This document shows positions 15,540 to 52,569 of a DNA stretch of 64,000 nucleotides, piece after piece. The translations under genes were made by a program, and so were the position numbers. This stretch comes from an uncultured Gammaproteobacteria bacterium (GTDB lineage Bacteria; Patescibacteriota; Microgenomatia; UBA10105; UBA927), in contig CAZSTG010000005.1 in assembly GCA_964609895.1 (NCBI GenBank), positions 6,998 through 70,997 on the forward strand, read 5' to 3'. Under the pieces are notes generated by a model. That model was not told where the DNA came from. It saw only the letters and a program-made list of their open reading frames with translations, and searched no databases. Positions within the stretch are counted from its first letter, which is position 1; each line of letters begins with the position of its first letter.

Positions 15540-16551
15540 GAGCAGTTTTTTCCCAGCTGAATGTTTTTGCCCAAGCTATACTATCCATACACATCTTTTT
15601 TCTTGCCTGAGGCGATAATGAAAGCATAGTGAGTATTGTATCTGCCATATTTTCTACACTACTTGTATCCATCTTCAATGAAGGCCCTGCAATTTCAGAA
15701 AGGCTTGAATTGTCCCCTAAGACAACAGGACAGCCACATGCCATTGCCTCCAAAACAGGCAGTCCAAACCCTTCATATAATGAAGGCTCAACTAAACAAC
15801 ATGCCATGTTATATAAGACAGCTAAATCTTCCTGACTGACAAAACCCGTCATTGTGACATGATCTTCGAGATGCAAATCATGAATATTTTGTTCAATTTT
15901 TTGAGTCTCCGGTAATTCACTTTTTTTGAATGCCCCGCCAATCAGCACTAAGTGACTATTCTTCTTTTTTTGAAGAACTCGCAAAAAAGCCGATAACAGT
16001 CCAAGCACATTTTTATTCCAGTTTACGTCACCGACAAACAGCAAAAACTGCTCTGGCAATCGGTATTTTTCACCAATTGCCTGTTGCATTTGTTTATTCT
16101 GTTTGACGTCATAACCAGGAGTTGCTGCAGAATATACCACATGAATTTTGCTTTCCGGTATATGCACAATGCGTTCAACATCTTTTTTTGAACTTTTGGA
16201 AACCGTAATAATCCCATCTGCACGTTTTAAGGCAATTTTCTGCATGTTCCATTTTACTCTCCCCCGTATACCGGCAGGAAACTGTTCCGGAAACACCAAC
16301 GGGATCAGATCGTGAACCGTTACCACCGTAGGAATCGATTTTTCCCATGGTAATGTCAAAAAAAACGGATCGAAATAAGGATAATGCACTATTTCTGCTG
16401 TATCGGGTATTTTTTCACCTCGAGTAAAAAAACTATACGAATGCTTTGATTCATACCGCCGTAATGCATCAATAAGGTTTTTTGTATATACGCCCACTCC
16501 CCGCACGGCATGCCCAGAAGAAAGCGGAGTAATGTCTATTGCTATATTCAT
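15496..16551 (-). CDS. Glycosyltransferase family 4 (GT-B).
   Basis: MNIAIDITPLSSGHAVRGVGVYT...LYEGFGLPVLEAMACGCPVV (E-x7-E). Start corrected to M25 (cat 16549-16551), an ATGA overlap. Confidence 0.8.
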   Translation of the reverse strand: MNIAIDITPLSSGHAVRGVGVYTKNLIDALRRYESKHSYSFFTRGEKIPDTAEIVHYPYFDPFFLTLPWEKSIPTVVTVHDLIPLVFPEQFPAGIRGRVKWNMQKIALKRADGIITVSKSSKKDVERIVHIPESKIHVVYSAATPGYDVKQNKQMQQAIGEKYRLPEQFLLFVGDVNWNKNVLGLLSAFLRVLQKKKNSHLVLIGGAFKKSELPETQKIEQNIHDLHLEDHVTMTGFVSQEDLAVLYNMACCLVEPSLYEGFGLPVLEAMACGCPVVLGDNSSLSEIAGPSLKMDTSSVENMADTILTMLSLSPQARKKMCMDSIAWAKTFSWEKTAHETVAVYETILAKK

Positions 16552-18158
16552 ACATGTGCCCTTTTCCTGTATAAAAGTATACCTAATACAGCAAAAATCA
16601 CCAAACTCACCGCTGAAATCCAATCAGCCGCAAGACGGATACCCGTCTCCTCATATCGCAAATGGACGATGTGCGTTCCTTGGGGAACACGCACGTCGAG
16701 TGTACCTTCACGCTGATACGCAATCGGTGTCACTACCCCGTCAACAGAGGCAGTCCATCCCGGAAAATAAAGTATATGGAATCGGATGACCGTATCGCTA
16801 TCTAAGGTCACTGTATACCGACGATCAAGATATTTTTCACCCGACCCATCCACGATAATCGGGTTATTCTCCATATCCGTTGCAATTGTCAGCGACCGTG
16901 TTTCCTTCCAAGGTGTCCAGATGGTAGACAGGCTGTTGCCCATAGATGATGTGCCGTCGGTAAAATTCGGACGGGATGCGTAATATGCATCATTTCTTGG
17001 TTCATAGACCGCACCCCTCGTATATCCGAAAGAAAAAACCACAGACAGGAGCGCAAATACTATGATGAGCCATTTTTTCTTGATTACAGCGCCCACAACT
17101 GCCGCGATATAGGCAGTAACTGGAATAAGATACACAAGATATCGCCACGGATGCTGTATATATTGGATAACAGGCACTGTCTCCCAAAGACGTGCTGATG
17201 AGGGTAGTGTCATAAAAAGCGCCAACAGGAGTACTCCGGACAATCCAAAGAGTTCAGTCCTCTCCCTGCCTTTTATTTTCCTTGCCACAAGCAGAATGCC
17301 CGTAAGCATAATCCATATGATTGGTCCAATCCCTATCTGAAAAGACATTTTGCCTGTATTAACCCCAACTCCTGAAAAAGCAGTCCCCCATGACGGAATC
17401 AGAAGCTCGGCAATGCTTGCAAAGTGATCTCTGTAGTTGACTGTATTCAGCCCGACCATATATTTTGATTCAAAAATGGCCGGCAGCCAAAACCATGAAG
17501 CAAGACCGATACCAAGGAGCATATACCATACCCATTTCCAGTTTCGCCTCCAAAGAAGATATACCAGAAGAAACGGACCGAAAATAACCGTGAGAATGTT
17601 GTGACTGAGAATAATCCCCGCAATTGCTGCCGCAAACAGCATCGGTCTTTTTTCTTCCATGCTCCATAAAGCCATGAACATAAACGCAATTGCCCACACC
17701 TCTCCTATTGCCCCCCGTACATACAGTTCGACAAACCAATACGGCACATATGCGGATACGACCGTTCCGATAACTGCGGGAAACACACCGAACCGTTTCT
17801 TTAACCATAAAAAGCAAAAGACTGCTGCCGTGAGATATCCCAATGCGGAACTTATCTTGAAACTCTCAACAAATGCCACACCGATACTATGCAACAATGC
17901 TGAAACATAATTGGCAAATGGATACAAAAACTCAAATACGGGAAGACCGTATCCGCTGTTTATCGTCGGTGCCCATCGGGGAAACACATACCCAGCTTCG
18001 AGCATACGGAAAAACTCCATAAAACGGATAAAATGAAATTCGCCGTCATGCGTCGGCAGAAACCCTTTGCCAAAAAAGGGCAATACCGCGGCGACACAGC
18101 ACAAAAAAACAATGAATAATCCTAATATTGGCGCTGTCTTTTTATTTTTTGTGTTCAT
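16548..18158 (-). CDS. 'PTPS-related'-type large polytopic membrane protein (uncharacterised, probable GT-C glycosyltransferase). Paralog 1 of 4.
   Basis: N-terminal loop THDGEFHFIRFMEF...PRWAPTINSGYGLPVFEFLYP. About 13 TM helices, then a C-terminal extracytoplasmic ~130 aa (LYFPGWTASVDG...PQGTHIVHLRY) and a terminal TM. Paralogous to 21738..23396, 46589..48265 and 48267..49832. Confidence 0.6.
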   Translation of the reverse strand: MNTKNKKTAPILGLFIVFLCCVAAVLPFFGKGFLPTHDGEFHFIRFMEFFRMLEAGYVFPRWAPTINSGYGLPVFEFLYPFANYVSALLHSIGVAFVESFKISSALGYLTAAVFCFLWLKKRFGVFPAVIGTVVSAYVPYWFVELYVRGAIGEVWAIAFMFMALWSMEEKRPMLFAAAIAGIILSHNILTVIFGPFLLVYLLWRRNWKWVWYMLLGIGLASWFWLPAIFESKYMVGLNTVNYRDHFASIAELLIPSWGTAFSGVGVNTGKMSFQIGIGPIIWIMLTGILLVARKIKGRERTELFGLSGVLLLALFMTLPSSARLWETVPVIQYIQHPWRYLVYLIPVTAYIAAVVGAVIKKKWLIIVFALLSVVFSFGYTRGAVYEPRNDAYYASRPNFTDGTSSMGNSLSTIWTPWKETRSLTIATDMENNPIIVDGSGEKYLDRRYTVTLDSDTVIRFHILYFPGWTASVDGVVTPIAYQREGTLDVRVPQGTHIVHLRYEETGIRLAADWISAVSLVIFAVLGILLYRKRAHV

Positions 18159-19263
18159 GATATTTCCTCACGCCATATACAGCGACATATATACCAAGCG
18201 GAATAACCGTCAACAATGTCCGTGCCATTGGTCCGAATCCCCCATAGTAGCCCATGTATATATATGGAAGGTGCCGTAGTTCCAGCGCACATGACAGACA
18301 AAGTGTCCAACCGATAAGGAACGAGTGCTTCTTCATGTCAAAAAAAGCCGCAAAGACGATCAACCAGACGGCATACCACGGATACAATTCCTCACGGAGC
18401 GGGGCAAACACGAAAAACACAAAAGACATGAGGCTGTATGCATACAGAAGTATTCTGTCCCATGACACGTTTTTCAACACGAGAAGTGGTGCGAGCGCAA
18501 GCGTTGGTATCTTTGTCAACCATGAAAAAAGAAGAAAAAACAAACCAAACAGTTTCTTTTTTTGATGCCACAGATACAATCCGAGCATCGCAAACAGCAT
18601 CATCACGATATCATTGTGACCCGATACCAACACCTCTGTAAGAATGAGCGGATTGAATGCAAAAAACACCACATTTTTCTTTGACTTAGTGACATGATAG
18701 ATAAAATATACGAACAAAAGATATACGACTGCGTTTACCAACTTGAAAGAGATGATTGTTCTCCAGATATCTCCGCCACCGAGCATATGCGGCAAGGCGG
18801 TTATTCCAATCCATACGGGGCCATAGAGCGCAACTTTATTGGCAGCTCTCGTAAACGCAAGATACGGTTCATTTGGAATTTCAACGGGCATCACGATATA
18901 CGGATTCTCATGATGTGTGAACGCGACTTTTGCCGTCGTCATATAATTAAACAGATCATAACTTAATGCAGAAAAAGAACAAGCAAGTATCACTGTCGTC
19001 ATTCCTATCACAATCCATAGTTTTTTCCCTGAAACGAACAGTTTTTCTGAATGAAAAAGTGCATAGAGATACCAGCCTGTTAATCCCAAAAGAATCAAAC
19101 AACATATGAGTGCAGCCAGTGGTCGTTCGACATATACAATATGACGAAGTGGTTCAAACCATTGAAGAAGCATTGCGTTATTTGTGAGCGGAAGATTCAC
19201 ATCAATGAATCCATAAGAAAAAACGAAAAAAATAATCAGAATAGTCACATACAGTAATATCAT
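18142..19263 (-). CDS. Polytopic membrane protein, unknown GT-C-like family. Paralog of 51375..52562.
   Basis: 373 aa. Shares SYD(L/F)FNY..TAK....H.NPY(I/L)V.P and AFNPLI..E.LVS.HNDIVMM blocks with 51375..52562. ATGA overlap at 19260-19263. Confidence 0.5.
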   Translation of the reverse strand: MILLYVTILIIFFVFSYGFIDVNLPLTNNAMLLQWFEPLRHIVYVERPLAALICCLILLGLTGWYLYALFHSEKLFVSGKKLWIVIGMTTVILACSFSALSYDLFNYMTTAKVAFTHHENPYIVMPVEIPNEPYLAFTRAANKVALYGPVWIGITALPHMLGGGDIWRTIISFKLVNAVVYLLFVYFIYHVTKSKKNVVFFAFNPLILTEVLVSGHNDIVMMLFAMLGLYLWHQKKKLFGLFFLLFSWLTKIPTLALAPLLVLKNVSWDRILLYAYSLMSFVFFVFAPLREELYPWYAVWLIVFAAFFDMKKHSFLIGWTLCLSCALELRHLPYIYMGYYGGFGPMARTLLTVIPLGIYVAVYGVRKYHEHKK

Positions 19264-20986: not shown

Positions 20987-21741
20987 AGCATGTTTCTGTA
21001 TTTTTTATACGCAATCGGAAAGTGAAGCGCTGACCAATATGCAAACACCAGCCCATACCACCCGTCCATAAACCCTTTGTGCCTTACAAACAAAAGAAAA
21101 AACATTTTAACTGGTTGCCAAATCATATAAGAACACCATGTCCGGATATTCACGGGAATGTTTTTTTCCTTCATAAACATCGCAGTTAAACTCGTGTATG
21201 AATCGGCTTTTTTCCAATAATCCTCAGATGTTCTGTACGAATAATGCAGCATCGGCTCTTTGATATACCCGATAGCCCCGTCAACAGCAATTTGCTCATG
21301 GACATCTTTGCATGGCAGTTTTGCTTTCCCGTTTTTCACAAGACGAATCACGTAATCGGGATATTGCCCGCCTTTTTTCATGAAATGTCCCCAGAAATTA
21401 TTCCGTCTTGGAATATAATATCCGTTTATTTTTTCATCATTTTCATTCACAATCTGTAAAATTTCATCTTTTAACTCATCGGTAATCACTTCGTCAGCGT
21501 CCATCTGGAGAATCCATGTTCCTTTGCACGCATCCATAGCTTTTTGCTTGTTGATATGAAAAATAGCGGGATTACTCGCAGGAATAATGTGAGAAGTATA
21601 TTTTTTGGCAATAGTAACGGTCTTGTCTGTTGAGCCACCATCGACGACGACAATTTCATCCGTCCATGAAGCAACGGATGCAAGACATGCATCAAGATTT
21701 TTTTCTTCGTTATACACTGCAATCGCCACTGATAATTTCAT
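20983..21741 (-). CDS. Glycosyltransferase family 2 (WaaE/KdtX-like).
   Basis: KLSVAIAVYNEEKNLDACLASVASWTDEIVVVDGGSTDKT. Paralogous to 41855..42613 and 43514..44428. Start corrected to M11 (cat 21739-21741), overlapping the stop at 21738. Confidence 0.75.
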   Translation of the reverse strand: MKLSVAIAVYNEEKNLDACLASVASWTDEIVVVDGGSTDKTVTIAKKYTSHIIPASNPAIFHINKQKAMDACKGTWILQMDADEVITDELKDEILQIVNENDEKINGYYIPRRNNFWGHFMKKGGQYPDYVIRLVKNGKAKLPCKDVHEQIAVDGAIGYIKEPMLHYSYRTSEDYWKKADSYTSLTAMFMKEKNIPVNIRTWCSYMIWQPVKMFFLLFVRHKGFMDGWYGLVFAYWSALHFPIAYKKYRNML

Positions 21742-23396
21742 GCTCTTTTTTTCCATAGAAGTACTCCACATACTGTAATCAGCATAAGTCCAACTGTACT
21801 AAGTGTCACCATATCTGCAATATATCTGAGTTTCGTATCTTCAAAAACAATGTTGACCTCGTGTGTCCCTTCCGTCACCCGAAATGTGATGAGACCTCGA
21901 TATGTCGGATCCTGATATTGTACACCCGTCTGAACCCCATCAACATAGACCTTCCACCCTGGAAAATACAGCGTATTTTCCACAAGTCTTGCGGGCTCAC
22001 GTGCTTCCACGCGATATTCGCGCGTTGTCGTAGTCCTTTTCCCATGTGTGATGATCACTGCACCTTCTGCAATCTCTATGGGAGCCGTTGGTCGATGCTC
22101 CATGAACCGTACAGACCAAATCGGACTGCTTTCGCCTGTGTCGGTTGTTGATTCGTATACGCCACTATAAAAAGACTCCGATTTTTGACTGTACGCTTTT
22201 GGTTTCCACATAAAAACAGTTGATGCCACTGCAATAATGCAAAATATACTGACAATATAATTACCGACAAGCCGTTTATTCACTTTTCGTCGTTCAATAA
22301 TAGAGGCAATACTCACTCCTCCAAGAAGCGCAGATAAAAATACGGACACTGTGAGGAATCGCCATGGAAATTGGAACTTCTGAAGGAGCGAAATGTTCTG
22401 CCAAATAACATTTGATGCAGAAGTCATGATAAACAATGAACCAAAAAACAAGAGCGCGGCGCCAATAACAAATACACGGAGTGACCTCTCCTTCATTTTC
22501 CATACGACCAGCAGTGAGGCAAGCACGCCAATCCACTGGGCAACACCAACAGACTTCGTTATCTCATTCCCTTGTCCATAGTTCCATGGGGAATAAAAAA
22601 ACCATGAAAATGGAACAAATCTACTACCAAATTCATTTGCAGTTACGATGTCTCGAAGTGTATATTTTCCTTCAAAAAACGCTGGCACCCAAAAAAATGC
22701 GGCTATACTGAAACCCAATAAGAAAAAATATACAGACGGAATTAAAAAACGCAAAGATTTTTTACCTTGGGTGAAAAAAAGATATATCCAATATAGCCCA
22801 ATAATCGGCAAAAACATGATTGCTATGGCATTGTGAGACAAAATCAGTGCGCCAATGGACAACGTTAAACCAATGCCATGCATGAGCCGCCTGCCTTTTG
22901 AATAATCAGTGGTTTTTGACAATAAAAACAAAAAATAACAGATAAGCGGGGGAAACACAAATGCCATATGTTCACCAATTGCACCCCGTACATACAAGTC
23001 GACAAACCGGTACGGGGCAAACCCGTAGAGAATGGCTGCAATCATCCCTGCGCGTTTTCCGAACGCGGTCTTTATCCATACATACATGGCAAGAATGCTT
23101 GCGATAAACGCTGCGGCAAACACCATCTTGGTTGCATCAACATAGGAAAATCCGAACCAATGAAAGAATGAACCGACATAGGAAGACATCGGATACAAAA
23201 ACATAAGTATCGGATGTCCGTATCCCCAATTCAAATTACTCGCCCAACGTGGAACAATATTCCCTTCAGAAAGACTCGCAAAAAAACTTGCGATACGTGC
23301 GACATGATCCTGCCCATCATGTGTTATGGGCAGTCCCTGCGGAACAAGTCCTGTCAGAGGTGCAAGACTCACGATAAGAAGAATAATCCAGTTCAT
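21738..23396 (-). CDS. 'PTPS-related'-type polytopic membrane protein. Paralog 2 of 4.
   Basis: ITHDGQDHVARIASFFASLSEGNIVPRWASNLNWGYGHPILMFLYP. C-terminal LYFPGWKVYVDG...TEGTHEVNIVF plus a terminal TM. Confidence 0.6.
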   Translation of the reverse strand: MNWIILLIVSLAPLTGLVPQGLPITHDGQDHVARIASFFASLSEGNIVPRWASNLNWGYGHPILMFLYPMSSYVGSFFHWFGFSYVDATKMVFAAAFIASILAMYVWIKTAFGKRAGMIAAILYGFAPYRFVDLYVRGAIGEHMAFVFPPLICYFLFLLSKTTDYSKGRRLMHGIGLTLSIGALILSHNAIAIMFLPIIGLYWIYLFFTQGKKSLRFLIPSVYFFLLGFSIAAFFWVPAFFEGKYTLRDIVTANEFGSRFVPFSWFFYSPWNYGQGNEITKSVGVAQWIGVLASLLVVWKMKERSLRVFVIGAALLFFGSLFIMTSASNVIWQNISLLQKFQFPWRFLTVSVFLSALLGGVSIASIIERRKVNKRLVGNYIVSIFCIIAVASTVFMWKPKAYSQKSESFYSGVYESTTDTGESSPIWSVRFMEHRPTAPIEIAEGAVIITHGKRTTTTREYRVEAREPARLVENTLYFPGWKVYVDGVQTGVQYQDPTYRGLITFRVTEGTHEVNIVFEDTKLRYIADMVTLSTVGLMLITVCGVLLWKKRA

Positions 23397-23401
23397 ATTG
23401 T

Positions 23402-25021: not shown

Positions 25022-25022
25022 A

Positions 25023-27964: not shown

Positions 27965-28004
27965 ACGATATATCTCATTGTATCATGGAAGAACGGCTTT
28001 TTCC

Positions 28005-29477: not shown

Positions 29478-29527
29478 ACGCCCTATGGCAAATGTAGGAA
29501 TATATATAGTATATAATAGATACGCAT
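29478..29527. promoter_or_regulatory. AT-rich divergent intergenic region, putative bidirectional promoter.
   Basis: 50 nt between divergent starts (cat 29475-29477, atg 29528-29530). TATAAT lies at 29513-29518, only about 9 nt upstream of the + strand ATG, which suggests a leaderless or short-leader transcript. The opposite strand has TATATT-like boxes. Confidence 0.35.
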
Positions 29528-31930: not shown

Positions 31931-31969
31931 TATCCCGACATACAGGATACTCTTTTTCCCCGCCTCTTT

Positions 31970-33523: not shown

Positions 33524-33579
33524 AGTTGTCTTCTTGACCGACTGCTTCTATCATAATACATAGCGCTGTTATTTAATAT

Positions 33580-35325: not shown

Positions 35326-35334
35326 AAAAAGTAT

Positions 35335-36243: not shown

Positions 36244-36247
36244 AGGT

Positions 36248-38506
36248 TTATCTATATTGTACCCTAACCTCATGCGTTCCGTCAGGAACAATACATCCGA
36301 AGAATATATAGTTTACCCTGACAATGTCCGTTTTTCTTTTATCGATAAACACTTCCCAGTGTGGATCCATCATGTTCCCAATGACCAAGAACCTCGCATT
36401 CTTCGATGCTGTTTGAAGTATCATTCTGTCACCTTCATAGGAGGTAATATCAACGGTATCATCAGCAAATTCTTCCCCGACGATGAACCCTTCATCTTCA
36501 AGCACTGCACTTTTCCCCGGAATAAACTCTTTTGAATACAGTCTTTTCATCACATCTTCTTTTGATTTTTCAAAAAAGAATTGTTCTGCAAAATAGACCC
36601 TTGGCACTTTGGTAACAACCGAATACAATTTTGTTGTTCCCTCTTCCCGTAAAAGCCTGACTAGTGGCGAGTTGATCGTATCCATAGAAAGAATATAATG
36701 CACGTTTAACAAAGCAAACAGTGGTGAGGTGATTGTTTTTGGCGAAATGATGCGGTTAAATCCGAACGGCGGCTTGATATTTGGTTCCCCTCGCTCCATC
36801 GCAGCGATATATTCCTCATACCGGCTTTGGTACATCGGGTCATATCCCGCGACAGATTCAATATCGTAATAACTTAAGACATTGGGAGGAATAAGTCTGT
36901 CATCTGTTGCAAGCACACGGAACGGTTTTTTTATCTGTTGCAGTTGTTCGATAATTTCGGTTTTCGGGAAAAAATATGACGTATCTGTAAATGGAGTAAA
37001 CTTCCATCCAAATCGGAGGAGCTCAAATGATAACAATAAAACTACTCCAATACACACGAACGTCCGCGCAGTTTTCCATGATGATTTCATCCATACAAGA
37101 ATGATAGAAACACAAAATATTACTCCATACAGTGCAGTCGGAAGAATAAGATTATTTTTAGCAACACTGATATTTGCAACTGGAATATATGGTTTGAGTA
37201 CGCTCAGCCAAGCTCCAAAAAGCACGATACCAACCCCAATAACTACCGTCATGCATTGCCTTTTCTTTGAGCCTTTTTGTAATTCTGAAATACCATAAGC
37301 TGCCAATATGGAAAGACTAAAATCAACAATGCTTAATAATCTTGTAGGCTGTAAGGATGAAAGAAATGGAACATGAAACACATAGGGCAACCGCGCAACA
37401 GGAGAATCTACCGCAAACAATAAACAGAGAGCAACGATTGCTCCCCAAAATACAGTTGTCTTTGATAGACCAACAATGGCAAGGATAAGACCAATAACCC
37501 CTATGTAGCCGACCAGTTCACCATAATTCCATGTTCCCCAGTAATTTAATGTTGTTGGATTTCCAAAAAAATCAGGTACTATAAACTGGATAAGATGCCG
37601 AAGTGGTATAAAAAATCCTTCAGCTTGCCACACAGCACCAATGCTTCTTGCACTTGTAAGATATAAAGAAATAAACCGAGCCCAGACAGGAAACGTTATG
37701 GCAATAATAAGAAGAGGAGTAAGAATATGCATAAGATATATCCTTTTTATGTTCATCCCCCGATGTGTCCATAACGCATAAAGACAAAAGAGCACCATGC
37801 TGTAAAAAAACACCTGTATGTGTCCTGCAAAAAATGACGAGACAACGGAGAAAATAAAAAGAAGCCTCCATAGTCCTTTTCTTTTGCCTTCATGTATTTT
37901 TTCAAACGAAAGAAGCAGAAGCGGCAGCCACAATAGTGTTGAACCAATAGTTCCCCACGTAAGCCAGGAAATTGAAAATCCTGAGAATGAAAAACACACG
38001 GCTCCTGTTACTGCGCCAAGTGACGAAACTTTTTTGTGCCGTAAAAACAGATACAGAAATATCCCTGCAAGAAGCGGTTGACTAATAATGAGAATAGTCC
38101 AAGCAACTTCAAACGGAAATACAAAAAACAAAACGTTTAAAGGATACAGTGCGCCTGATTGAATGTTTCCTAATAGTGGAACCCCGGAAAATGATGTAGC
38201 ATCCCAGAGCGGCATATGACCCGCCTTCAATGCTTCAATAACCTGTTTTCTCCATGGAATCTGCTGTCTAATTGGGTCAGTGATCAAAAAATTCTTATAC
38301 GGTACGCCGTTTTGAAACGTATGCGCATATGCGTCCCGCCATGGATGATACAGACCCACAAGATCATCAGAAGGAATGGGCAACTTTGCAAAACACACTG
38401 TTTTATAAAAAAACACAAAAACAAGAATCGCAAAACACCCAATTGTTAGAATGTCCTGATAGCGTTTGAGAAAGGATCGTACTTTGTCAATAAATGTTAC
38501 TTGCAT
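36248..38506 (-). CDS. YfhO-family membrane protein. Paralog 2 of 3.
   Basis: IRQQIPWRKQVIEALKAGHMPLWDATSFSGVPLLGNIQSGALYPLNVLFFVFP. 752 aa. The C-terminal DPHWEVFIDKRKT...PDGTHEVRVQYR module has no terminal TM. Confidence 0.7.
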   Translation of the reverse strand: MQVTFIDKVRSFLKRYQDILTIGCFAILVFVFFYKTVCFAKLPIPSDDLVGLYHPWRDAYAHTFQNGVPYKNFLITDPIRQQIPWRKQVIEALKAGHMPLWDATSFSGVPLLGNIQSGALYPLNVLFFVFPFEVAWTILIISQPLLAGIFLYLFLRHKKVSSLGAVTGAVCFSFSGFSISWLTWGTIGSTLLWLPLLLLSFEKIHEGKRKGLWRLLFIFSVVSSFFAGHIQVFFYSMVLFCLYALWTHRGMNIKRIYLMHILTPLLIIAITFPVWARFISLYLTSARSIGAVWQAEGFFIPLRHLIQFIVPDFFGNPTTLNYWGTWNYGELVGYIGVIGLILAIVGLSKTTVFWGAIVALCLLFAVDSPVARLPYVFHVPFLSSLQPTRLLSIVDFSLSILAAYGISELQKGSKKRQCMTVVIGVGIVLFGAWLSVLKPYIPVANISVAKNNLILPTALYGVIFCVSIILVWMKSSWKTARTFVCIGVVLLLSFELLRFGWKFTPFTDTSYFFPKTEIIEQLQQIKKPFRVLATDDRLIPPNVLSYYDIESVAGYDPMYQSRYEEYIAAMERGEPNIKPPFGFNRIISPKTITSPLFALLNVHYILSMDTINSPLVRLLREEGTTKLYSVVTKVPRVYFAEQFFFEKSKEDVMKRLYSKEFIPGKSAVLEDEGFIVGEEFADDTVDITSYEGDRMILQTASKNARFLVIGNMMDPHWEVFIDKRKTDIVRVNYIFFGCIVPDGTHEVRVQYR

Positions 38507-39567
38507 AAAGACTGCAAAAGCAAATCATACTGTTTATTGAATGTATCCGTCGAAAACCGTGACACTTCCTTCTTCGCTTCCGCAATGATTTTTTTGTTTG
38601 CCGAAGTTGGTTTCATCGCTTCATACGTTGCGCGCTCAAGCTCTTTTGTTGTATTCCACACATACCCAGTCTTTTTATGTATCACTATTTCCGGCTGTCC
38701 TCCTCCGTTATACACAACGGGTATACACCCACTTGCCATTGCCTCAACGGTGGTAATACCAAAGTGTTCCATATTTTTTGGATCGGTTTCCCCGAATCCT
38801 GCCGCATGCCAGTATATGGATGCATGACCATACAGTGTTTGTAATTCCCTGTAGGAACAATTCACGAAAAATTCAATGTCATATCCTTTTGCCATATTCT
38901 TTAATGATGCAACATACGCTGTATCTGTCGGAAGGCATCCGCCTGCAAGAATAAGCTTCCAACCTGTCATTTCTTTCGCCTTTTTCATTTCTATAAAAGT
39001 CTTAATCAATACATCCTGCTTTTTTGCGCTGTAGAGTGCATTAAATCTTCCAACACTCACAATAGTCTTTGTTTTTGCCTTGTTTTCAAACCCTTCAATC
39101 CCAACCGGCGGATATATGACGGACACTGGGATGGTGATACTTTTATCGAGATTGTTTTTAGTGAACTCTGAATTTACTACAACTTGCTGATAATGCGTCG
39201 CTTTCCATGGATGCATGGCAATACGGGAAAACGGCACCTGAAAATGAATAATGTTATGTCTGGCAAGTGTTGTCGGTACACTGCCGTCGCTTAGGAAAAA
39301 AATGAGGTCATACAATGACGATTCAATGAGTTTCCGAACGAGCCTACGGCTTCCAAATATGTTTGGAACCACATGCACAGTACGGACATCTAATCCAAAT
39401 CTATCAATTGCCTGCGTAATAATTGTTTTGTCATCCCAAAAAAGAGAAACATCGTGTGTTTTTGACCAGTGCTCAGCCAGTGTCAATACATACCGTTCCC
39501 CACCACCAAGAGAATCAAAATACGGGTTATAGATTCCTATCTTTAGCTTTTTCGTTTTTTTGTCCAT
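38497..39567 (-). CDS. Glycosyltransferase family 4.
   Basis: KIGIYNPYFDSLGGGERYVL at the N-terminus and GFGITTVEAMASGCIPVV (E-x7-E) at the C-terminus. Start uncertain (M1 at 39579 or M5 at 39567). Both overlap the upstream stop. Confidence 0.7.
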   Translation of the reverse strand: MDKKTKKLKIGIYNPYFDSLGGGERYVLTLAEHWSKTHDVSLFWDDKTIITQAIDRFGLDVRTVHVVPNIFGSRRLVRKLIESSLYDLIFFLSDGSVPTTLARHNIIHFQVPFSRIAMHPWKATHYQQVVVNSEFTKNNLDKSITIPVSVIYPPVGIEGFENKAKTKTIVSVGRFNALYSAKKQDVLIKTFIEMKKAKEMTGWKLILAGGCLPTDTAYVASLKNMAKGYDIEFFVNCSYRELQTLYGHASIYWHAAGFGETDPKNMEHFGITTVEAMASGCIPVVYNGGGQPEIVIHKKTGYVWNTTKELERATYEAMKPTSANKKIIAEAKKEVSRFSTDTFNKQYDLLLQSLCK

Positions 39568-41858
39568 AAAGCAATACAAACAATAACGCCACTACTTACC
39601 AATGATACTATCACCCCTACTCGAAAACCAATGGGATGATATCTATATTCTACTATGTGTTCTCCTTTTGGGACTGCTACTGCTCTAAAATCATAATCAG
39701 CTCGATACACTTTTGTTTTTTTGCCATCAATTGTTGCTTCCCACCCTGCATCATAGACATCAGACAAAAACAACAGTTTCGGCGATTCGCTTGTTGTTTT
39801 CAGCATTACTTGATTCGGGGTATATTCCGTAATCTGCACTTCGCCCGATCCGGATGTAGGCTCGATATCGGGTGTTGTTTCCAATATGAGTGAATTTCTT
39901 CTGTCAAAATCGGGAGCAAACAACCTGTCAATGATTTTTTGATCATCAGTTATTACCTCATAGGAAGATGCAAAAAAAGCTCTTGGGAAACTTTTTGTAT
40001 AGACATAGACTTCATACTGTCCGTCTTCATAGGTCTTCTGCATATCTCCATTTTCATATTGCCACACGGGAAATGCCCAGACATTCCTTCCGTCACTGAC
40101 CCGTTGCAGGATATACCGGACGCCCAAAAGTTGTAATGTCTGATCTTTGTATCTTCCATGTTTGTCAAACATCACAACAGATCTGTCACCAGAAGCTACA
40201 ATACCGCTTGATGCAGCGTTCAGAAATTCCGCGTACCGTCCCTGATACATCGCGTCATACCCTTCAATAAGCGGCAGTCGGGATGTCATACCCACTTCTC
40301 CTCCGATGTTTCCGAAAACCCTATACGTACCGATTTCCCGTTTGAGGTGTGTCAACACATTCATCTCCGGATAGACATATTTTTTCTCATCAAACGGCAT
40401 CCATTTGGACGAGAACCGGTACATATCAAACATAGTAACAACAATAAGTACAAAAACAGGGATCATATACCATTTCATTTTCTTCAAAAACCCAAGCCCC
40501 ATGGACACGAGTGCCACACTGAGAAGTGCTGTCGGCAACAGCAGATTTCTTTTTGCAATACTGTTTGCGTCATTCGTAAATGGCTCAATCACAAACATGA
40601 CAAACCATACTCCTACCAATATAAGCGCTGTTCCTGCAGCAAACAGGTAAAAACCAGACGGTTTTTTGGTTTTCCATGAGGCTATAAGCGCATCCAAACC
40701 AAATCCTGCAAGAACGGCAAGCGAACAACTGCACAGGATAATGATGCGGGAAGCGGCGCTTGTTGAAACAACCGGAAGTTTTAATGCAAACAGCAGATCA
40801 TTCAGCGGCGTCGGATAGGCAAGAAAAAGCGAAAACAACGCAAGAACCGAAAAAAACCGGATATATCCTTTCAGATTCCTGACCATTGCAAAACAGGCAA
40901 GGAGTAATGGAATAACCCCCACATAGCTTGCCCATTCAGCGTAATGCCCGAACCAGTCATTCCGTGTTACCGGATTTCCGTAGAAATCCGGAGAAAACAA
41001 GGTCACAATATATTGCCAAGGGATAACTTCTCCTTTTATAAAACTGGTGCTCCTTGTGGAGGACAGATATGATTGCAGTGTCAATATAATCTGCGGTGCC
41101 ACGACTGATATTCCAAACACAGACACGAGACCAAGAGCTATTCCTCGGGCAAAATTTCTTGTTGACAGTGTTACAAACAAGATATAAAGAAGTATTCCAC
41201 CAGCAACATACAGTGATATTTGAAAATGCCCAGACACAAAAGAAAGCGCAAGACTTGCCGCCAATAGTATGAGATACCGCCAGTTCCCTTTCTTTATGTA
41301 AACCGTCACTGCCCACAACGCGTACGGCAAACATAATGCTGCATAACCGAGAGTTCCATACGCCATCCATGTCGTCATAAATCCGCAAAACATAAACGAA
41401 ATAGCACTCAATAGAGCAGCACTCTTGGATCTTTCTAAAGACCGCATAAACACGTACATGCCCACACCTGCAAGGAGAGGTTGAAGTAAGACTAAAACAC
41501 TCCATGCATCAATAAATGAAAACAGGAAAAAAAGCACATTAAACGGCGAAAACACTGCAGATTGATAGTTGGCAGCATGCGGGGTACCCGCAAAACTATA
41601 CGGATTCCATAATGGAATTTGTGCAATTTTGAAGCTATCTATTGTAATATTTTTCCATGGAAAAATCTGGCTAATAACATCCGGCATCGCGTTGTTTTTC
41701 ACGGGCATGCCGTATGACGTATTCCATGGAGGAAAAAACGTCGCCAGATAACTGGAAGGAAACGGAACAAGACCTTTTCCAAAATACGGAAAACAGAACG
41801 CAATCCACAAGAGAACAATTGCAAAAATAGGAATAATCAAAAGCAGTTTCTTTTTCAT
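39543..41858 (-). CDS. YfhO-family membrane protein. Paralog 3 of 3.
   Basis: ISQIFPWKNITIDSFKIAQIPLWNPYSFAGTPHAANYQSAVFSPFNVLFF. C-terminal LSDVYDAGWEATIDGKKTKVYRADYDFRAVAVPKGEH plus a terminal TM. Start corrected to MKKKLLLII (cat 41856-41858). Confidence 0.7.
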   Translation of the reverse strand: MKKKLLLIIPIFAIVLLWIAFCFPYFGKGLVPFPSSYLATFFPPWNTSYGMPVKNNAMPDVISQIFPWKNITIDSFKIAQIPLWNPYSFAGTPHAANYQSAVFSPFNVLFFLFSFIDAWSVLVLLQPLLAGVGMYVFMRSLERSKSAALLSAISFMFCGFMTTWMAYGTLGYAALCLPYALWAVTVYIKKGNWRYLILLAASLALSFVSGHFQISLYVAGGILLYILFVTLSTRNFARGIALGLVSVFGISVVAPQIILTLQSYLSSTRSTSFIKGEVIPWQYIVTLFSPDFYGNPVTRNDWFGHYAEWASYVGVIPLLLACFAMVRNLKGYIRFFSVLALFSLFLAYPTPLNDLLFALKLPVVSTSAASRIIILCSCSLAVLAGFGLDALIASWKTKKPSGFYLFAAGTALILVGVWFVMFVIEPFTNDANSIAKRNLLLPTALLSVALVSMGLGFLKKMKWYMIPVFVLIVVTMFDMYRFSSKWMPFDEKKYVYPEMNVLTHLKREIGTYRVFGNIGGEVGMTSRLPLIEGYDAMYQGRYAEFLNAASSGIVASGDRSVVMFDKHGRYKDQTLQLLGVRYILQRVSDGRNVWAFPVWQYENGDMQKTYEDGQYEVYVYTKSFPRAFFASSYEVITDDQKIIDRLFAPDFDRRNSLILETTPDIEPTSGSGEVQITEYTPNQVMLKTTSESPKLLFLSDVYDAGWEATIDGKKTKVYRADYDFRAVAVPKGEHIVEYRYHPIGFRVGVIVSLVSSGVIVCIALWTKKRKS

Positions 41859-42613
41859 TTTTTTAGTTGTTTTGCTTCCTGCTTTTCCCACAGTTTTGCG
41901 TACGTAATAAACATGCTGAATGCCTGATACATACTTTCAATCCATCCAGCTGCTCCGGCCTTCCATCCGCCTTGACTAAAAAATGAATTGGTAAATGCAG
42001 TTCCCATAACACGAATAAAACGCCACCAGGACATTTTGGGGTGCCCAGCAGAGAGGCGTAATTCTGCCTCAATATCAGACCATTCATTTGTTTTTTTAAC
42101 CATTTCTACAATAGTTCTATGGGTGTTATGTTCCAAAGGCTCCTTCAATGTTCCAATTGCTCCTTGAATAACTGCATGTTCATGCAATTTTCCCTCCCAA
42201 GATACCAATGCGCTTTTTTTAATCAGCCGCACCATTTTGTCTTTTGTAGGCCAACGATGCCCTAGGTAATAATTTGTGCGCAAAATATAATACGCTGCCG
42301 CTTCACCATCTCGTATTTTCTCCACAATTTCTTTTTGTAGCGCATCTGTTATTATTTCGTCCGCATCAACATATAAAAGCCACTCACCAGTTGCTGCCTT
42401 TGCTCCAGCATCACGAAGTGCTGAAAAATATGCCCCTGGTTTTTCAACAACAACTGCATTTGCCTTTTTAGCACGTTGTACAGTCTCATCCGTTGAGCCA
42501 TTATCAACAACGATAATCTCATAAGCAAACCTGACGTGTTCAATACATGCAAGAATTCGAGCTGCTTCATTTTTGGCAATAATGATGACACTACACGTGT
42601 TTTGTTGGTTCAT
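41855..42613 (-). CDS. Glycosyltransferase family 2 (WaaE/KdtX-like).
   Basis: CSVIIIAKNEAARILACIEHVRFAYEIIVVDNGSTDET. Paralog of 20983 and 43514. Confidence 0.75.
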   Translation of the reverse strand: MNQQNTCSVIIIAKNEAARILACIEHVRFAYEIIVVDNGSTDETVQRAKKANAVVVEKPGAYFSALRDAGAKAATGEWLLYVDADEIITDALQKEIVEKIRDGEAAAYYILRTNYYLGHRWPTKDKMVRLIKKSALVSWEGKLHEHAVIQGAIGTLKEPLEHNTHRTIVEMVKKTNEWSDIEAELRLSAGHPKMSWWRFIRVMGTAFTNSFFSQGGWKAGAAGWIESMYQAFSMFITYAKLWEKQEAKQLKK

Positions 42614-44428: not shown

Positions 44429-44429
44429 A

Positions 44430-45875: not shown

Positions 45876-46611
45876 ACCGTTTCGGTAGTTTTTTCCATGG
45901 TTTTGCGGTAAAAAGCCGCTGTAGCCCTTCCAGATCTCCCTGAGCTGTTTTGATAACACGAACCGTTGAGCCCGGATTATCTATCCACGTCACCGGTTCC
46001 TCATAGATACGATATCCCAATTTTTCCGCAAGAATGAGCAGTTCCGAATCAAAAAACCATGCGTTGTCAACGACGTGCGGAAGCAGCATTTTTGCGGCTT
46101 CATCAGTAATGGCTTTAAATCCGCATTGCGCATCACCAAATTTCACGAAAAACACCATTTTTATCAATAAAATATACATTTTTGACGTAAACGTGCGCAG
46201 CATGCTTCTCCCGTACACGCGGGACGCAAACGAATTCCTTGTACCGATGGCAATGTCATATCCCCGCATGAGAGACCGCACGAGCGGAGGCAAATGCTTT
46301 AAATCAGTCGACAAATCGACATCCATGTAACAATGAAGATCCGCATTTGTTTCCAGCCATGCCTTTTTTACCGCTCTTCCTCTTCCTTTTTCCTCAAGTC
46401 TGAGTACACGGACAGCTGCATATTTTTTTGCAAGCTTTTTGGATATTGCAGGAGTAGTATCGGTTGATGCGTTATCTGCAATGGTAATGGACCAACTCAC
46501 ATCAGAAAGATACGACGTCAGAAACGTGATAAGTGTTTCCGTATGCGCTTCTAGTTCGGCTTCCTCGTTATAGACAGGAATAACAATATCAAGTGTTGGC
46601 TTTTTTTCCAT
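45862..46611 (-). CDS. Glycosyltransferase family 2, Dpm1/GtrB-like polyprenyl-phosphate sugar synthase (putative).
   Basis: LDIVIPVYNEEAELEAH...ITIADNASTDTT...DVDLSTD. About 250 aa, soluble. Directly follows a PTPS-related GT-C gene. Confidence 0.7.
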   Translation of the reverse strand: MEKKPTLDIVIPVYNEEAELEAHTETLITFLTSYLSDVSWSITIADNASTDTTPAISKKLAKKYAAVRVLRLEEKGRGRAVKKAWLETNADLHCYMDVDLSTDLKHLPPLVRSLMRGYDIAIGTRNSFASRVYGRSMLRTFTSKMYILLIKMVFFVKFGDAQCGFKAITDEAAKMLLPHVVDNAWFFDSELLILAEKLGYRIYEEPVTWIDNPGSTVRVIKTAQGDLEGLQRLFTAKPWKKLPKRYGRN

Positions 46612-48265
46612 AAATATATATCGCACCGATGGCAAGCAGTCCCACTATGCTCATCCAGTTTCCGAGCATCCGAACCGGCGTGTCACGAAAGCGCAATTCT
46701 ATTATACTCATTCCCTCCTGTATATTCACGGAAGTAAGACCGTATGTAATCTTGGGATATACTTGTTTCCCGTTGACCGTCATCTGCCAACCTGGAAACC
46801 ACGCCTTACGTATCGTAATCTTCTGTGCTGTATCGCTTTTGATTTCCGCAAGAAAAAAAGTACTTGATTCGATAAGCTTCGTCACGGAAAACGTACTTTC
46901 CCCAACAACGGTGACTTTAGCCACTTCGCCTACCGCGGTAGGTCGTACGATGTCGGATGGAAGATACTCATCGGAAATTTTTGACTTGTAAAACCGTAAT
47001 TCCTCAAAACTTTCAAACGCGCTGCTGTCACGCACGTATTGCGTCTGCGGAACAAACAGCTTGACGTTTACCAGCATGGTAGAAACGATGATACCACTCG
47101 CCAACAGTATTCTGACGAAAGGTATACGGAAAACGGAAACAACATATGCTGCGCCTACAGCAATCCCCATCATACCGAATGCCAATAACCTCCACGGATA
47201 CTGGATAAATGCTGTATACGGGATCATGCGCCAAAGAGGTGCCGACTGTGCAAGCATACCGGCTGAACACAACAACACAAACACGGTCGCCACCTTCATA
47301 TATGCATTTTTTTCCTGCACCTTTCTGTTCTTTCTCATATACAGCAGCAGAGAGACGGCGGCCGCAAAAAACACAACATGCAGTCTCCCAAATTTGAATG
47401 ACATACCGTCCACACAGCCTGAAGCTGAACCGGCAAATCCCCATGGCGAATTCCACAACTGCGAAATACAGACGAAATGGTCAAAAAATGTTGTACCTGC
47501 AGACTGTACCATTGCGGTTACCGACGTCGCATACATCTCAAGGAGCGCGGGAAGCCAAAAAAATCCGGAAAGCAAAAGTCCCAGAATAGCAACACCGACG
47601 GGAACCATAATATCCTTTTTTGTCAGTCTATGCCTTACCAGCTTCACTGCCCAGAATATACATATTCCCAAAAGCAGCATCGCACACGTCAAAAAACCAA
47701 AAATGGTGTGCGCGGTAATGACACCCGCAAGGGCAAGTCCCGCGCATGCCGTTTGTGCCACAAAATGTTTTTCCTTCAGTGCACGAATCAATCCCGACAG
47801 GACAAGCGGAACCAGAGCAATCGCCCAGTATTCCCCTACTGATCCGCGAACGTATATCTGTACGGCATGATAGGGAGCAAAAAGAAACACGATGGCACCT
47901 GCAAGCGCAGCTATTGTACCGAATGCAGGCAACAACAATGCATATAATGTTATAGGCGCAAGCACCGCACCGATGCCAAACATGATTTTTGTTGCAATAA
48001 CACTGTCTAGTCCGACTGCATACAGAAATCCGCCGACATAATACGGCAACGGTCCATAAAAATTAAACACCGGATATCCCAAACCGAATCCGAGATCAGA
48101 AACCATACGGACGGGAAATTGCCCGTCCCGAAGTGCACGTCCCATAACAACAACCCTGGCAACCTGTGTGTCATCATGCATGGGAAAATATCCGGCAGAA
48201 AACAACGGCTTGATGGAAAAAAATGACAATAGGATAATGCACAGCAACCCAAAATACTTTTTCAT
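46589..48265 (-). CDS. 'PTPS-related'-type polytopic membrane protein. Paralog 3 of 4.
   Basis: YFPMHDDTQVARVVVMGRALRDGQFPVRMVSDLGFGLGYPVFNFYGP. C-terminal AWFPGWQMTVNG...QEGMSIIELRF plus a terminal TM. Start corrected to MKKYFGLL (cat 48263-48265). Confidence 0.6.
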   Translation of the reverse strand: MKKYFGLLCIILLSFFSIKPLFSAGYFPMHDDTQVARVVVMGRALRDGQFPVRMVSDLGFGLGYPVFNFYGPLPYYVGGFLYAVGLDSVIATKIMFGIGAVLAPITLYALLLPAFGTIAALAGAIVFLFAPYHAVQIYVRGSVGEYWAIALVPLVLSGLIRALKEKHFVAQTACAGLALAGVITAHTIFGFLTCAMLLLGICIFWAVKLVRHRLTKKDIMVPVGVAILGLLLSGFFWLPALLEMYATSVTAMVQSAGTTFFDHFVCISQLWNSPWGFAGSASGCVDGMSFKFGRLHVVFFAAAVSLLLYMRKNRKVQEKNAYMKVATVFVLLCSAGMLAQSAPLWRMIPYTAFIQYPWRLLAFGMMGIAVGAAYVVSVFRIPFVRILLASGIIVSTMLVNVKLFVPQTQYVRDSSAFESFEELRFYKSKISDEYLPSDIVRPTAVGEVAKVTVVGESTFSVTKLIESSTFFLAEIKSDTAQKITIRKAWFPGWQMTVNGKQVYPKITYGLTSVNIQEGMSIIELRFRDTPVRMLGNWMSIVGLLAIGAIYIYGKKANT

Positions 48266-48266
48266 G

Positions 48267-49832
48267 TTATTTTTTTCTAGTTTTTTTGTGCGACGCTGTC
48301 GTTTTGGCAACCGCAAACCAGATACAGGAAACGACATATACTATACCGAATACCGCGCTTGCCACATCGGCAAGAAATCGTCCTGGTGTTTCGCGGAATT
48401 CCATATACAGATGATGCTTCCCTTCAGGAACCGCAATGCGCATAAACCCGTAAGGGTTATCTGACAGTATTTTTACCGGTGCGTCGTCAAGCATCGCTCC
48501 CCATCCCGGATAATACACAGTGTTTATCTGTAATTCACTCTTGGATTCCGCATCAATCACAACATCTATTCGCTGTGTGGTAATTATTTTTTCTTCTATC
48601 TTTCCGTTGCCCGTAAAGAATTCTACCTTTTTTGTAACGCGCGTCGACATTTGTTTTGCCGCCCAGCGCGGCATATACTCGTCATGCACGGTCGTAGTCG
48701 ATTCGTTCGTCGTAAAATATCCTTCAGGATGTATGACACTTTCCGCCTGTATGTATTGAGTACCCCACACTGCCACCAAAAACATAATCAGACAAACGGC
48801 ATATAAAATCGCCCCTTTTTTTGCCTTATGCAGCGCGGCTCCGATCATCCACGGGCCGACAATAACCATATAGGATAGCCACCGGAATGGAAATTGGATA
48901 ACCTTGACAAAATCCGCTATGCGCCAGAAAAAGGCGCTCGCCCGTGAAGCAAAATAAACACTGACTGCAAAAAACGCAAGAAAAAATACCGTTTCCCTTT
49001 TCTGCTGCATCGGCCGCTTGAATGCCATATATAATGCGGCGATAAAAAACGGAAAGCTTGCGAGCATCAGAGAATTGCTTATGGAAAAATAGGCGCCGGG
49101 ATTGGAAATAACCGTTGTGTCAAAATTGACAAACCGCCGTTCAAACAACGCAGGAAGCCAAAAAAATGAAGACATACCGATGCCAACAATGAACTGCGGC
49201 ATAAGACTCCACTGTTTTTTCAGCATGATGTACAACAGGATCAGAGGAATAAAAAATGCCGCAAGGGTGTTATGACTTATGGCCGTTACCGCAATCACTG
49301 GTGCAAGCAGCCATGTCTTTTTTGACTCCACGATATACATCGCACACGGCAAAAGCCCCAGCACAAGAACCTCCCCCACTGATCCCCTTTTGAACATATC
49401 AAACAGCAGATAGGGCATCAACAGATATGACAACGCGCCTGTTATGCTCGCAATTCCTGAAAATGAACGGCGTAGCCACAAAAACATTCCTATCACCCCG
49501 ATTGCCACTGATCCGACAAGGATTACCTCTACGGATGTCTGAAACGGTACTCCGGCTGCGTGCAGGATGCTTCCGATATACATAAAACCGGGATATAAAA
49601 AGTTCGCGACAGGATACCCATAACTCTGGTTCAACCTGCCTAAAAATCTGACTGGAAACTGACCTTCACGAAAACTTTGGTAAAATGCGGACAAACGGAT
49701 TACCATCCAATTCCCGTCGTCCGTCACCAGCATACCTTCACGAAAAACGGGAAATAACACGACAAAAGCTGCAACGAGCAAGGCACAAATACTGAGCAGC
49801 ACATATATTTTTTTATTCATACGAAGGAACAC
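48267..49832 (-). CDS. 'PTPS-related'-type polytopic membrane protein. Paralog 4 of 4 (divergent motif).
   Basis: MLVTDDGNWMVIRLSAFYQSFREGQFPVRFLGRLNQSYGYPVANFLYP, with TDDG in place of HDG/HDD. C-terminal VYYPGWGAMLDD...PEGKHHLYMEF plus a terminal TM. Confidence 0.6.
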   Translation of the reverse strand: MFLRMNKKIYVLLSICALLVAAFVVLFPVFREGMLVTDDGNWMVIRLSAFYQSFREGQFPVRFLGRLNQSYGYPVANFLYPGFMYIGSILHAAGVPFQTSVEVILVGSVAIGVIGMFLWLRRSFSGIASITGALSYLLMPYLLFDMFKRGSVGEVLVLGLLPCAMYIVESKKTWLLAPVIAVTAISHNTLAAFFIPLILLYIMLKKQWSLMPQFIVGIGMSSFFWLPALFERRFVNFDTTVISNPGAYFSISNSLMLASFPFFIAALYMAFKRPMQQKRETVFFLAFFAVSVYFASRASAFFWRIADFVKVIQFPFRWLSYMVIVGPWMIGAALHKAKKGAILYAVCLIMFLVAVWGTQYIQAESVIHPEGYFTTNESTTTVHDEYMPRWAAKQMSTRVTKKVEFFTGNGKIEEKIITTQRIDVVIDAESKSELQINTVYYPGWGAMLDDAPVKILSDNPYGFMRIAVPEGKHHLYMEFRETPGRFLADVASAVFGIVYVVSCIWFAVAKTTASHKKTRKK

Positions 49833-51357: not shown

Positions 51358-51374
51358 TATAACGGAATAAACAG

Positions 51375-52562: not shown

Positions 52563-52569
52563 GAATATG

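Follow-up and report, generated by a model that had tools for sequence, protein, structure and literature searches.

A C-terminal beta-sandwich with membrane anchor shared by YfhO-like and PTPS_related-like GT-C proteins of a glycan-biosynthesis island is probably ancestral to both families

Results

Seven GT-C genes with a common C-terminal module

The 64,000-nucleotide stretch of DNA that was analysed (the window) contains a homologous C-terminal module of about 75-80 aa in exactly seven ORFs, four coding for PTPS_related-like and three for YfhO-like GT-C proteins (Table 1). A six-frame scan of the window with a profile of the module matched these seven ORFs and nothing more at E ≤ 10. All seven were present where the original prediction had placed them, except for the start of Y39543: the longest ORF begins with a GTG at 41891, and the position given earlier, 41858, is an internal ATG. 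The true start of P46589 is probably the internal Met at MKKYF. The predicted ending of module, single TM helix and basic tail applies to six of the seven proteins, all of which finish with a hydrophobic helix and a tail rich in K/R, and does not apply to Y36248, which ends straight after the module. That this copy keeps the module without the helix had been recognized before and agrees with a hydropathy scan, in which no terminal TM was found; its orthologue in a syntenic relative (L001) has the same ending.

Table 1. Genes, modules and terminal segments of the seven GT-C proteins in the window.
Feature	Coordinates	Strand	Basis
P16548, PTPS_related-like GT-C, 536 aa	16548..18158	-	ORF call
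P16548 beta-sandwich module	16635..16853	-	module profile alignment; Pfam YfhO positions 768-830
P16548 linker, terminal TM helix, basic tail YRKRAHV	16551..16634	-	hydrophobic segment from residue 511 of 536
P21738, PTPS_related-like GT-C, 552 aa	21738..23396	-	
P21738 beta-sandwich module	21825..22055	-	profile alignment; eight strands, residues 440-518 in model
P21738 terminal TM helix, basic tail	21741..21824	-	helix 522-551 in model
Y29528, YfhO-like GT-C, 800 aa	29528..31930	+	PF09586 E 2.2e-28, 99.6 bits
Y29528 beta-sandwich module	31622..31846	+	Pfam, module profile
Y29528 terminal TM helix, KKKKK tail	31847..31927	+	ORF translation, hydropathy
Y36248, YfhO-like GT-C, 752 aa, variant without TM anchor	36248..38506	-	PF09586 E 6.5e-21, 74.9 bits
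Y36248 beta-sandwich module, protein end	36251..36460	-	Pfam, module profile
Y39543, YfhO-like GT-C, 782 aa from GTG	39543..41891	-	PF09586 E 1.2e-29, 103.7 bits
Y39543 beta-sandwich module	39621..39845	-	Pfam, module profile
Y39543 terminal TM helix, KKRKS tail	39546..39620	-	ORF translation, hydropathy
P46589, PTPS_related-like GT-C, 582 aa	46589..48337	-	PF10131 positions 1-320, 31.5 bits, above gathering score
P46589 beta-sandwich module, most divergent copy (VNG, EGMS)	46670..46888	-	alignment, Pfam, module profile
P46589 terminal TM helix, tail	46592..46669	-	ORF translation, hydropathy
P48267, PTPS_related-like GT-C, 521 aa	48267..49832	-	hhalign to P21738 E 1.4e-30
P48267 beta-sandwich module	48378..48605	-	Pfam, module profile
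P48267 terminal TM helix, long basic tail	48270..48377	-	ORF translation, hydropathy

The three YfhO-like proteins matched the Pfam YfhO model (PF09586) above its gathering score over both core and C-terminal end. The C-terminal ends of the NCBIfam models PgfM1 and PgfM2 matched residues 686-779 of Y39543, and the hydropathy scan of Y29528 and Y39543 revealed a gap of about 280-300 aa ahead of the last TM helix, corresponding to the large extracytoplasmic region of YfhO-type proteins. The four PTPS_related-like proteins did not match PF09586 over the TM core and were matched only at model positions ~755-835; for P16548, which hhalign aligned with P21738 at E = 2e-44, this was the sole Pfam match and passed the threshold on the module alone (31 versus 28.5 bits). 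With PF10131 (gathering score 26.4), P46589 reached its score at positions 1-320 only and the other three paralogues gave no match, while homologues of P21738 carry precomputed PF10131 matches; for the second half of the model (~320-621), neither the window proteins nor related representatives were matched beyond position ~346.

Sequence homology of the modules

As predicted, a multiple alignment of the last ~100-130 aa showed columns consistently conserved over about 75 residues ahead of the TM helix. The motif is common to both families, but its earlier description as identical was slightly overstated, because only the W of PGW and the G of PxGxH are strictly invariant in all seven modules, the other positions being kept in four to six (P and G of PGW, D of VDG and H of PxGxH, six each; P of PxG, five; G of VDG, four). 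An HMM built from the three YfhO-type modules only recovered every one of the four PTPS-type modules (17.6-31.3 bits), while none of 2,000 composition-matched shuffles scored above 9.4 bits, and the reciprocal HMM of the PTPS-type modules recovered the YfhO-type modules at 18.8-40.2 bits, versus a shuffled best of 11.2. Judged by these shuffle controls (17.6-40.2 bits against at most 11.2), the similarity between the families is not compositional. The C-terminal end of PF09586 (positions ~755-835 of 835) also matched all seven modules (E = 7.7e-17 to 1.2e-3). At the level of sequence, real homology of the two families' modules is confirmed.

Relation between the two families

An hhalign comparison of the two family profiles gave a single collinear block (P21738 60-552 versus Y39543 102-780, 467 columns, E = 1e-25), in which the YfhO branch carries insertions. 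In core-only comparisons, for which the GT39-type GT-Cs of the same genome served as comparison family, the PTPS_related-like (P) and YfhO-like (Y) cores matched each other at E = 2e-17, versus 7e-9 for P and GT39 and 3e-5 for Y and GT39; the TM core superposes on solved GT-C enzymes. Within the first extracytoplasmic loop (EL1), the P family has an invariant D27 and a nearly invariant D30, the Y family has a nearly invariant D71, and hhalign pairs D30 with D71.

Module subtype agreed with core type in 95 of 98 units, and the core class of the nearest-neighbour module was identical 100 times out of 105 (permuted mean 58, maximum 74). The three discordant units and five nearest-neighbour exceptions were rejected as cases of real mixing: there is no overlap between the two classification methods, and since the exceptions differ from one method to the other they were treated as noise. 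In single-sequence comparisons the module was the only region detectably similar between the families and is therefore regarded as more conserved than the cores. This observation counts against vertical inheritance; strong constraint would explain the higher conservation, and a later transfer would explain it too.

Predicted structure of the module

As the original prediction had suggested, the module is predicted by AlphaFold2 to be a separately folding beta-sandwich (eight strands, pLDDT 95; 95.3 for the module-only model of P21738), which is joined directly to the last TM helix as its anchor. Among solved structures, the closest folds are accessory beta-sandwiches of carbohydrate-active enzymes and a region of AftD. 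PDB sequence searches with the full-length proteins returned no match; no YfhO-type structure has been solved. When the module profile was run against the PDB, nothing beyond filamin repeats and a marginal 89-aa kinase-associated domain came up. Alignment and model place the conserved positions in the turns of hairpins and on the same face as hydrophobic residues, a pattern that fits determinants of the fold better than a ligand site. The predicted models support an extracytoplasmic beta-sandwich with TM anchor as a feature common to proteins that Pfam splits between PF09586 and PF10131. The module most likely acts as a structural juxtamembrane clasp, with acceptor contact possible.

Distribution of the module in databases

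The module profile matched 65,774 protein cluster representatives, 24,052 of them at E ≤ 1e-10. Architectures were inspected for the best 150 of the 65,774 matches, a sample biased towards query-like sequences. In these, 21-46 aa separate the end of the module from the C-terminus or, in fusions of two to four units, from the next unit, and a hydrophobic helix follows the module; none of the full-length proteins has an unrelated N-terminal core, all being P-type, Y-type or divergent YfhO. Other core types may occur among the weaker matches. Tandem duplicated modules are present in P0227, P0187 and P0279 and, together with the anchor-less Y36248, represent some domain-level plasticity, which speaks against a vertical view. 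Stand-alone occurrence of the module had also been raised, and the search for it yielded no true copy: all six candidates (P0001, P0015, P0016, P0025, P0034 and P0192) proved to be artefacts, traced to an in-frame stop, genes split by frameshifts, a gap in the scaffold or the ends of contigs. The 35 hits of the module profile in a word-indexed protein search were all short fragments, too little for a survey of architectures.

Comparison with known systems

Members of PF09586 include B. subtilis YfhO, L. monocytogenes Lmo1079, S. mutans PgfM1/PgfM2 and streptococcal PgtC2. Y29528, Y36248 and Y39543 resemble them in matching core and C-terminal end, the last ~80 positions of the model being the module, and in the published layout of multi-TM core, large extracytoplasmic region and last TM helix (PMC5836110), but they are distant CPR paralogues (74.9-103.7 bits versus 566 bits for a canonical member), and one of them, Y36248, has no terminal anchor. 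In B. subtilis YfhO, a large extracellular loop lies between the last two TM helices (Rismondo 2018, PMC5836110), and YfhO-type transfer of sugars, with a polyprenyl-phosphate donor and, outside the membrane, teichoic acid or protein as acceptor, is known only from Firmicutes genetics (PMC5836110, PMC11092751). A simple scan of hydropathy detected no TM helices at the C-terminal ends of the island's GT2 genes, and for this reason no GtrB/CsbB-type polyprenyl-phosphate sugar synthase was identified here.

PF10131 (PTPS_related) belongs to the GT-C clan CL0111 (PMC7801869). The TM cores of P46589 and of the P21738 homologues match this model from position 1 to ~320, whereas its second half is unmatched, the C-terminus is a YfhO-type module instead, and three of the four window paralogues fall below the Pfam threshold on their own. 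That the second half is never matched counts against vertical inheritance of the module. 'Component 27', a group of bacterial TM proteins (median 665 aa) annotated 'YfhO' and structurally distinct from YfhO, was assigned to the STT3/PglB/YfhO superfamily, with the C-terminal module not singled out (Durairaj et al. 2023, PMC10584680); likened to it by description, the PTPS-like proteins of the window share this mis-annotation pattern, which the C-terminal module causes. The C-terminal accessory beta-sandwiches of GH36, GH38, GH66, PL8 and PelA are alike in fold only (sequence identity 7-16%), and they are soluble with no TM helix after them, whereas six of the window modules have one.

Discussion

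We consider it likely that the seven paralogues represent two sister branches within a single GT-C lineage, and that the module is ancestral and was inherited with the core; we infer for it the role of a clasp. One branch would be YfhO-like and the other shorter, with a PF10131-like TM core. The ancestral layout would consist of a multi-TM catalytic core at the N-terminus, whose EL1 bears a conserved Asp, an extracytoplasmic region (~50 aa long in the shorter branch; in the YfhO branch ~250-300 aa, accompanied by two additional TM helices), the eight-strand beta-sandwich of ~80 aa, three residues, the last TM helix and then a basic cytoplasmic tail; both branches appear to keep this layout, and the module would therefore have been inherited vertically with the core. 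Its multiplication would have occurred by gene duplication within the glycan-biosynthesis island, with no shuffling between unrelated enzymes. The sandwich may lie on the outer membrane face, with the last helix stapling the extracytoplasmic part back onto the TM core; this would resemble the mycobacterial GT-C arabinofuranosyltransferase AftD (PDB 6W98/6WBX), in which, according to the AftD paper, a structural beta-sandwich is followed by re-entry of TM12. Stapling of this kind would keep the acceptor-side architecture in place above the active site, and direct contact with the glycan acceptor is possible.

A chance or compositional similarity of short beta-rich C-termini might be argued from the fact that just two columns are strictly invariant among the seven modules, but shuffle controls scoring no higher than 11.2 bits, detection of all seven modules by an independent Pfam model and the 24,052 strong database matches leave it practically no probability, and on the sequence comparisons it is already refuted. 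It is also improbable that beta-sandwich and anchor form an independent cassette moved by recombination between distinct GT-C families. The module is indeed the best-conserved segment between the families, tandem duplications and anchor loss do occur, and the nearest-neighbour exceptions are few (5/105); against this, the homology is collinear over the full length, the P and Y cores are mutually closest among the families tested, module and core co-segregate (95/98; 100/105), foreign cores are absent among the best 150 of the 65,774 matches, the stand-alone candidates were artefacts in 6/6 cases, and the exceptions, differing between two classification methods, look like noise. On these points the original prediction of a mobile accessory domain on distinct GT-C cores is not supported. 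We likewise regard as very doubtful an autonomous acceptor- or partner-binding unit of sandwich and anchor that passed at least one time, long ago, from one GT-C lineage to another and can still be duplicated or lose its anchor. If this were true, the exceptional conservation across more than 65,000 clusters would mark a specificity-determining or partner-docking element of a huge uncharacterised surface-glycan transferase family.

Unlikely, though deserving some weight, is a CBM-like domain that would mainly bind a glycopolymer or glycoprotein acceptor, present it to the active site and possibly set the spacing. By fold comparison, the predicted module is similar to CAZyme accessory sandwiches, but its conserved residues lie at turns or alternate with hydrophobic core positions, and one motif recurs in paralogues whose acceptors presumably differ. 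We also count against this reading that in GH enzymes the C-terminal beta-sandwiches mostly have a structural role and do not bind sugar.

Inherited with the core, as we prefer to read it, the module is ordinary biology without a new mechanism and is already covered by the Pfam YfhO model. The value of the finding lies mostly in annotation: the last ~80 positions of PF09586 are a separable domain of beta-sandwich and anchor, which is conserved more strongly than any other part of a very large GT-C lineage. The module alone can lift non-YfhO enzymes over the YfhO threshold, P16548 being the case here, and so produce 'YfhO' cross-annotation; a separate domain model would clean up family assignments. 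It also offers a defined target for deletion or swapping in YfhO or PgfM enzymes that are tractable, and it brings under one architecture two kinds of enzyme, YfhO-like and PTPS-like, that are multiplied in the surface-glycan islands of CPR bacteria.

The module in seven glycosyltransferases

As originally predicted, seven large membrane-protein ORFs lie between 16.5 and 49.8 kb of the window, and a six-frame scan found the module, a C-terminal beta-sandwich of about 75-80 residues, in exactly these seven: three YfhO-like proteins (Y branch) and four PTPS_related-like paralogues (P branch), each named by its lower coordinate (Table). The source names of near-identical proteins suggest that the window comes from a CPR genome of Microgenomates/Gottesmanbacteria type. 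The P paralogues are mutually related (hhalign E 2e-44 to 4e-24), and only P46589 reached the PTPS_related (PF10131) threshold, over model positions 1-320 only; PF10131 is also annotated on homologues of P21738, some of which carry PF09586 as well. When the longest ORFs are taken, P46589 and P48267 overlap by 71 nt (48267-48337); the first 24 residues of the 46589-48337 ORF appear non-native, and translation probably begins at the Met of 'MKKYFGLL'. Between 14427 and 52625, GT-C-type membrane glycosyltransferases are packed unusually densely for a CPR genome; seven of them bear the module, and genes for soluble GT2 and GT4 enzymes and for a flippase lie in between. Nearly all window genes lie on the minus strand, and GC skew is negative in all 2-kb bins (-0.07 to -0.20), with no switch within the window.

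Table. Membrane-protein ORFs of the array (window coordinates)
ORF	Coordinates	Strand	Assignment
P16548	16548-18158	-	Second paralogous set
P21738	21738-23396	-	Second paralogous set
P46589	46589-48337	-	Second paralogous set; PF10131 above threshold
P48267	48267-49832	-	Second paralogous set
Y29528	29528-31930	+	Pfam YfhO (PF09586), core and C-end
Y36248	36248-38506	-	Pfam YfhO (PF09586), core and C-end
Y39543	39543-41891	-	Pfam YfhO (PF09586), core and C-end
	19260-20405		PMT_2/GT39-like
	23402-25114		PMT_2/GT39-like
	25023-26681		PMT_2/GT39-like
	28005-29477		PMT_2/GT39-like
	49834-51516		PMT_2/GT39-like
	26678-27964		GT87-like
	14427-15539		Multi-TM, no Pfam match
	18142-19263		Multi-TM, no Pfam match
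	31970-33523		Multi-TM, no Pfam match
	33580-35325		Multi-TM, no Pfam match
	51375-52625		Multi-TM, no Pfam match
	44430-45959		Polysacc_synt flippase

Alignment of the last 100-130 residues of all seven proteins gave consistent columns across about 75 residues before the terminal helix. The motif described as identical between the families was only partly so: the W of 'PGW' and the G of 'PxGxH' are invariant, while the remaining positions are kept in four to six of the seven. An HMM built from the three YfhO-type modules only matched all four PTPS-type modules (17.6-31.3 bits, against 9.4 for the best of 2,000 shuffles), and the reverse comparison gave 18.8-40.2 bits (best shuffle 11.2); with these scores well above the shuffles and the columns consistent, a compositional or low-complexity origin of the similarity was ruled out. 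Independently of the window-built HMMs, 7/7 modules were matched by the final ~80 positions of Pfam's YfhO model (E 7.7e-17 to 1.2e-3); in the Pfam copy searched, the module has no model of its own. In six of the seven proteins it is followed by a terminal hydrophobic helix and basic tail, the exception being, as already recognised, Y36248. The shared C-terminal module is thus confirmed as real and statistically solid.

In the AlphaFold2 model of P21738 (pLDDT 88.4, pTM 0.91), the helical TM core extends to about residue 391 and is followed, after a short linker, by eight beta-strands (440-518) and then by a long helix (522-551); the module modelled alone was also confident (pLDDT 95.3). Sequence and profile searches of the PDB found no YfhO-type structure. 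Chain 9k1u_D (89 aa, 'Serine/threonine protein kinase') was a weak match for the profile's second half (E 0.0064), in a hairpin-turn-hairpin pattern, 'PGxxVxLDGK...G.a.L.L.PG.Y.L.I', that recalls PEGA-type domains and may reflect distant relationship or convergence.

Probable inheritance rather than mobility

The module had been proposed to be a mobile accessory domain reused by distinct GT-C cores, and single-sequence comparisons indeed detect similarity between the P and Y families in the module only. This implies that the module evolves more slowly than the core, for which strong constraint is a sufficient explanation, and collinearity, core closeness, co-segregation, architectures and the lack of true stand-alone copies among six candidates traced all argue against transfer. 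Profile-profile comparison gave a single alignment of P21738 (60-552) with Y39543 (102-780) over 467 columns (E 1e-25), running from the EL1 region through the TM core and module into the last helix, with two TM helices and ~200 extracytoplasmic residues extra in the YfhO branch. With the module removed, the P and Y cores still matched each other (E 2e-17), ahead of this genome's GT39/PMT_2-type GT-C proteins (P-core 7e-9, Y-core 3e-5); by these profiles they are each other's closest relatives among the families tested. Among the best 150 of 65,774 database matches, module subtype corresponded to the type of the immediately preceding core for 95 of 98 units, in 100 of 105 cases the nearest-neighbour module sat on a core of the same class (permuted mean 58, maximum 74), and mean module identity was higher within the families (0.31 for P, 0.35 for Y) than between them (0.23). 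In this same set, all full-length matches had a P-type, Y-type or divergent YfhO core, and the module was always separated by 21-46 residues from the C-terminus, or from the next unit in 2-4-unit fusions, and was followed by a hydrophobic helix. Sequence comparison therefore does not support a mobile accessory domain; it indicates that the YfhO/PTPS-like GT-C lineage inherited the module from its ancestor as an integral C-terminal domain, which paralogy has multiplied here.

All six short stand-alone candidates traced to contigs were artefacts: a Y39543 orthologue cut by an in-frame stop, a protein from a genome full of fragmented genes, a piece of a frameshift-split gene, fragments adjoining other pieces, a contig-end artefact and a scaffold-gap artefact. 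The Y39543 orthologue lies at 3138-5306 of L001 (JGI 3300037810, contig Ga0376277_0000162), a metagenome contig syntenic with 35.3-46 kb of the window; its stop, which marks a pseudogene or is a sequencing error, replaces a Tyr of the window ('FGSS*EVITD' vs 'FASSYEVITD'), so that the gene was called as 582-aa and 101-aa pieces.

Some database proteins are natural fusions in which two to four complete GT-C units follow one another, each ending in a module and TM helix of its own (P0156, 3329 aa; P0157, P0159 and others); P0156 is unlikely to be an assembly artefact because it is located on a 258-kb contig. Tandem module pairs within one unit occur in P0227 (565-635 and 687-759), P0187 and P0279, with a TM helix after the second copy only.

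Predicted topology and role

The basic tail predicts a cytoplasmic C-terminus with the sandwich outside, and since only three residues link sandwich and last helix, the sandwich would have to lie on the membrane surface. Of the conserved motif, PGW-x-A-x-V-DG maps to the beta5-beta6 hairpin and P-x-G-x-H-x-V-x-h-x-Y to the beta7-beta8 hairpin; residues with conserved side chains alternate, in register, with hydrophobic ones, a pattern typical of fold determinants. We therefore favour a structural 'clasp' that would fasten the extracytoplasmic region back onto the TM core, similar to the layout published for AftD, over contact with the acceptor, a secondary possibility. The anchor-less variant is conserved: Y36248 (C-terminal end at 36248-36460) and its L001 orthologue (6334-8550) both end directly after the beta-sandwich, indicating that the terminal helix is dispensable in some contexts.

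Relation to known families

The topology of YfhO, in which a large loop separates the two final TM helices, has been in the literature since 2018 (PMC5836110). Among functional enzymes of the YfhO type are B. subtilis YfhO, Listeria Lmo1079 and streptococcal PgtC2, PgfM1 and PgfM2; the C-ends of PgfM1 and PgfM2 match Y39543. PF10131, a family of unknown function, is recognised as belonging to the GT-C clan (PMC7801869). The seven proteins are further members of known families, and their novelty is low. A large family that carries the annotation 'YfhO' yet differs from YfhO in structure was reported by Durairaj et al. 2023 (PMC10584680); the C-terminal module is a plausible cause of this cross-annotation, as in P16548, which scores 31 bits to the YfhO model from the module alone. 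The main value of the finding is as a useful annotation point.
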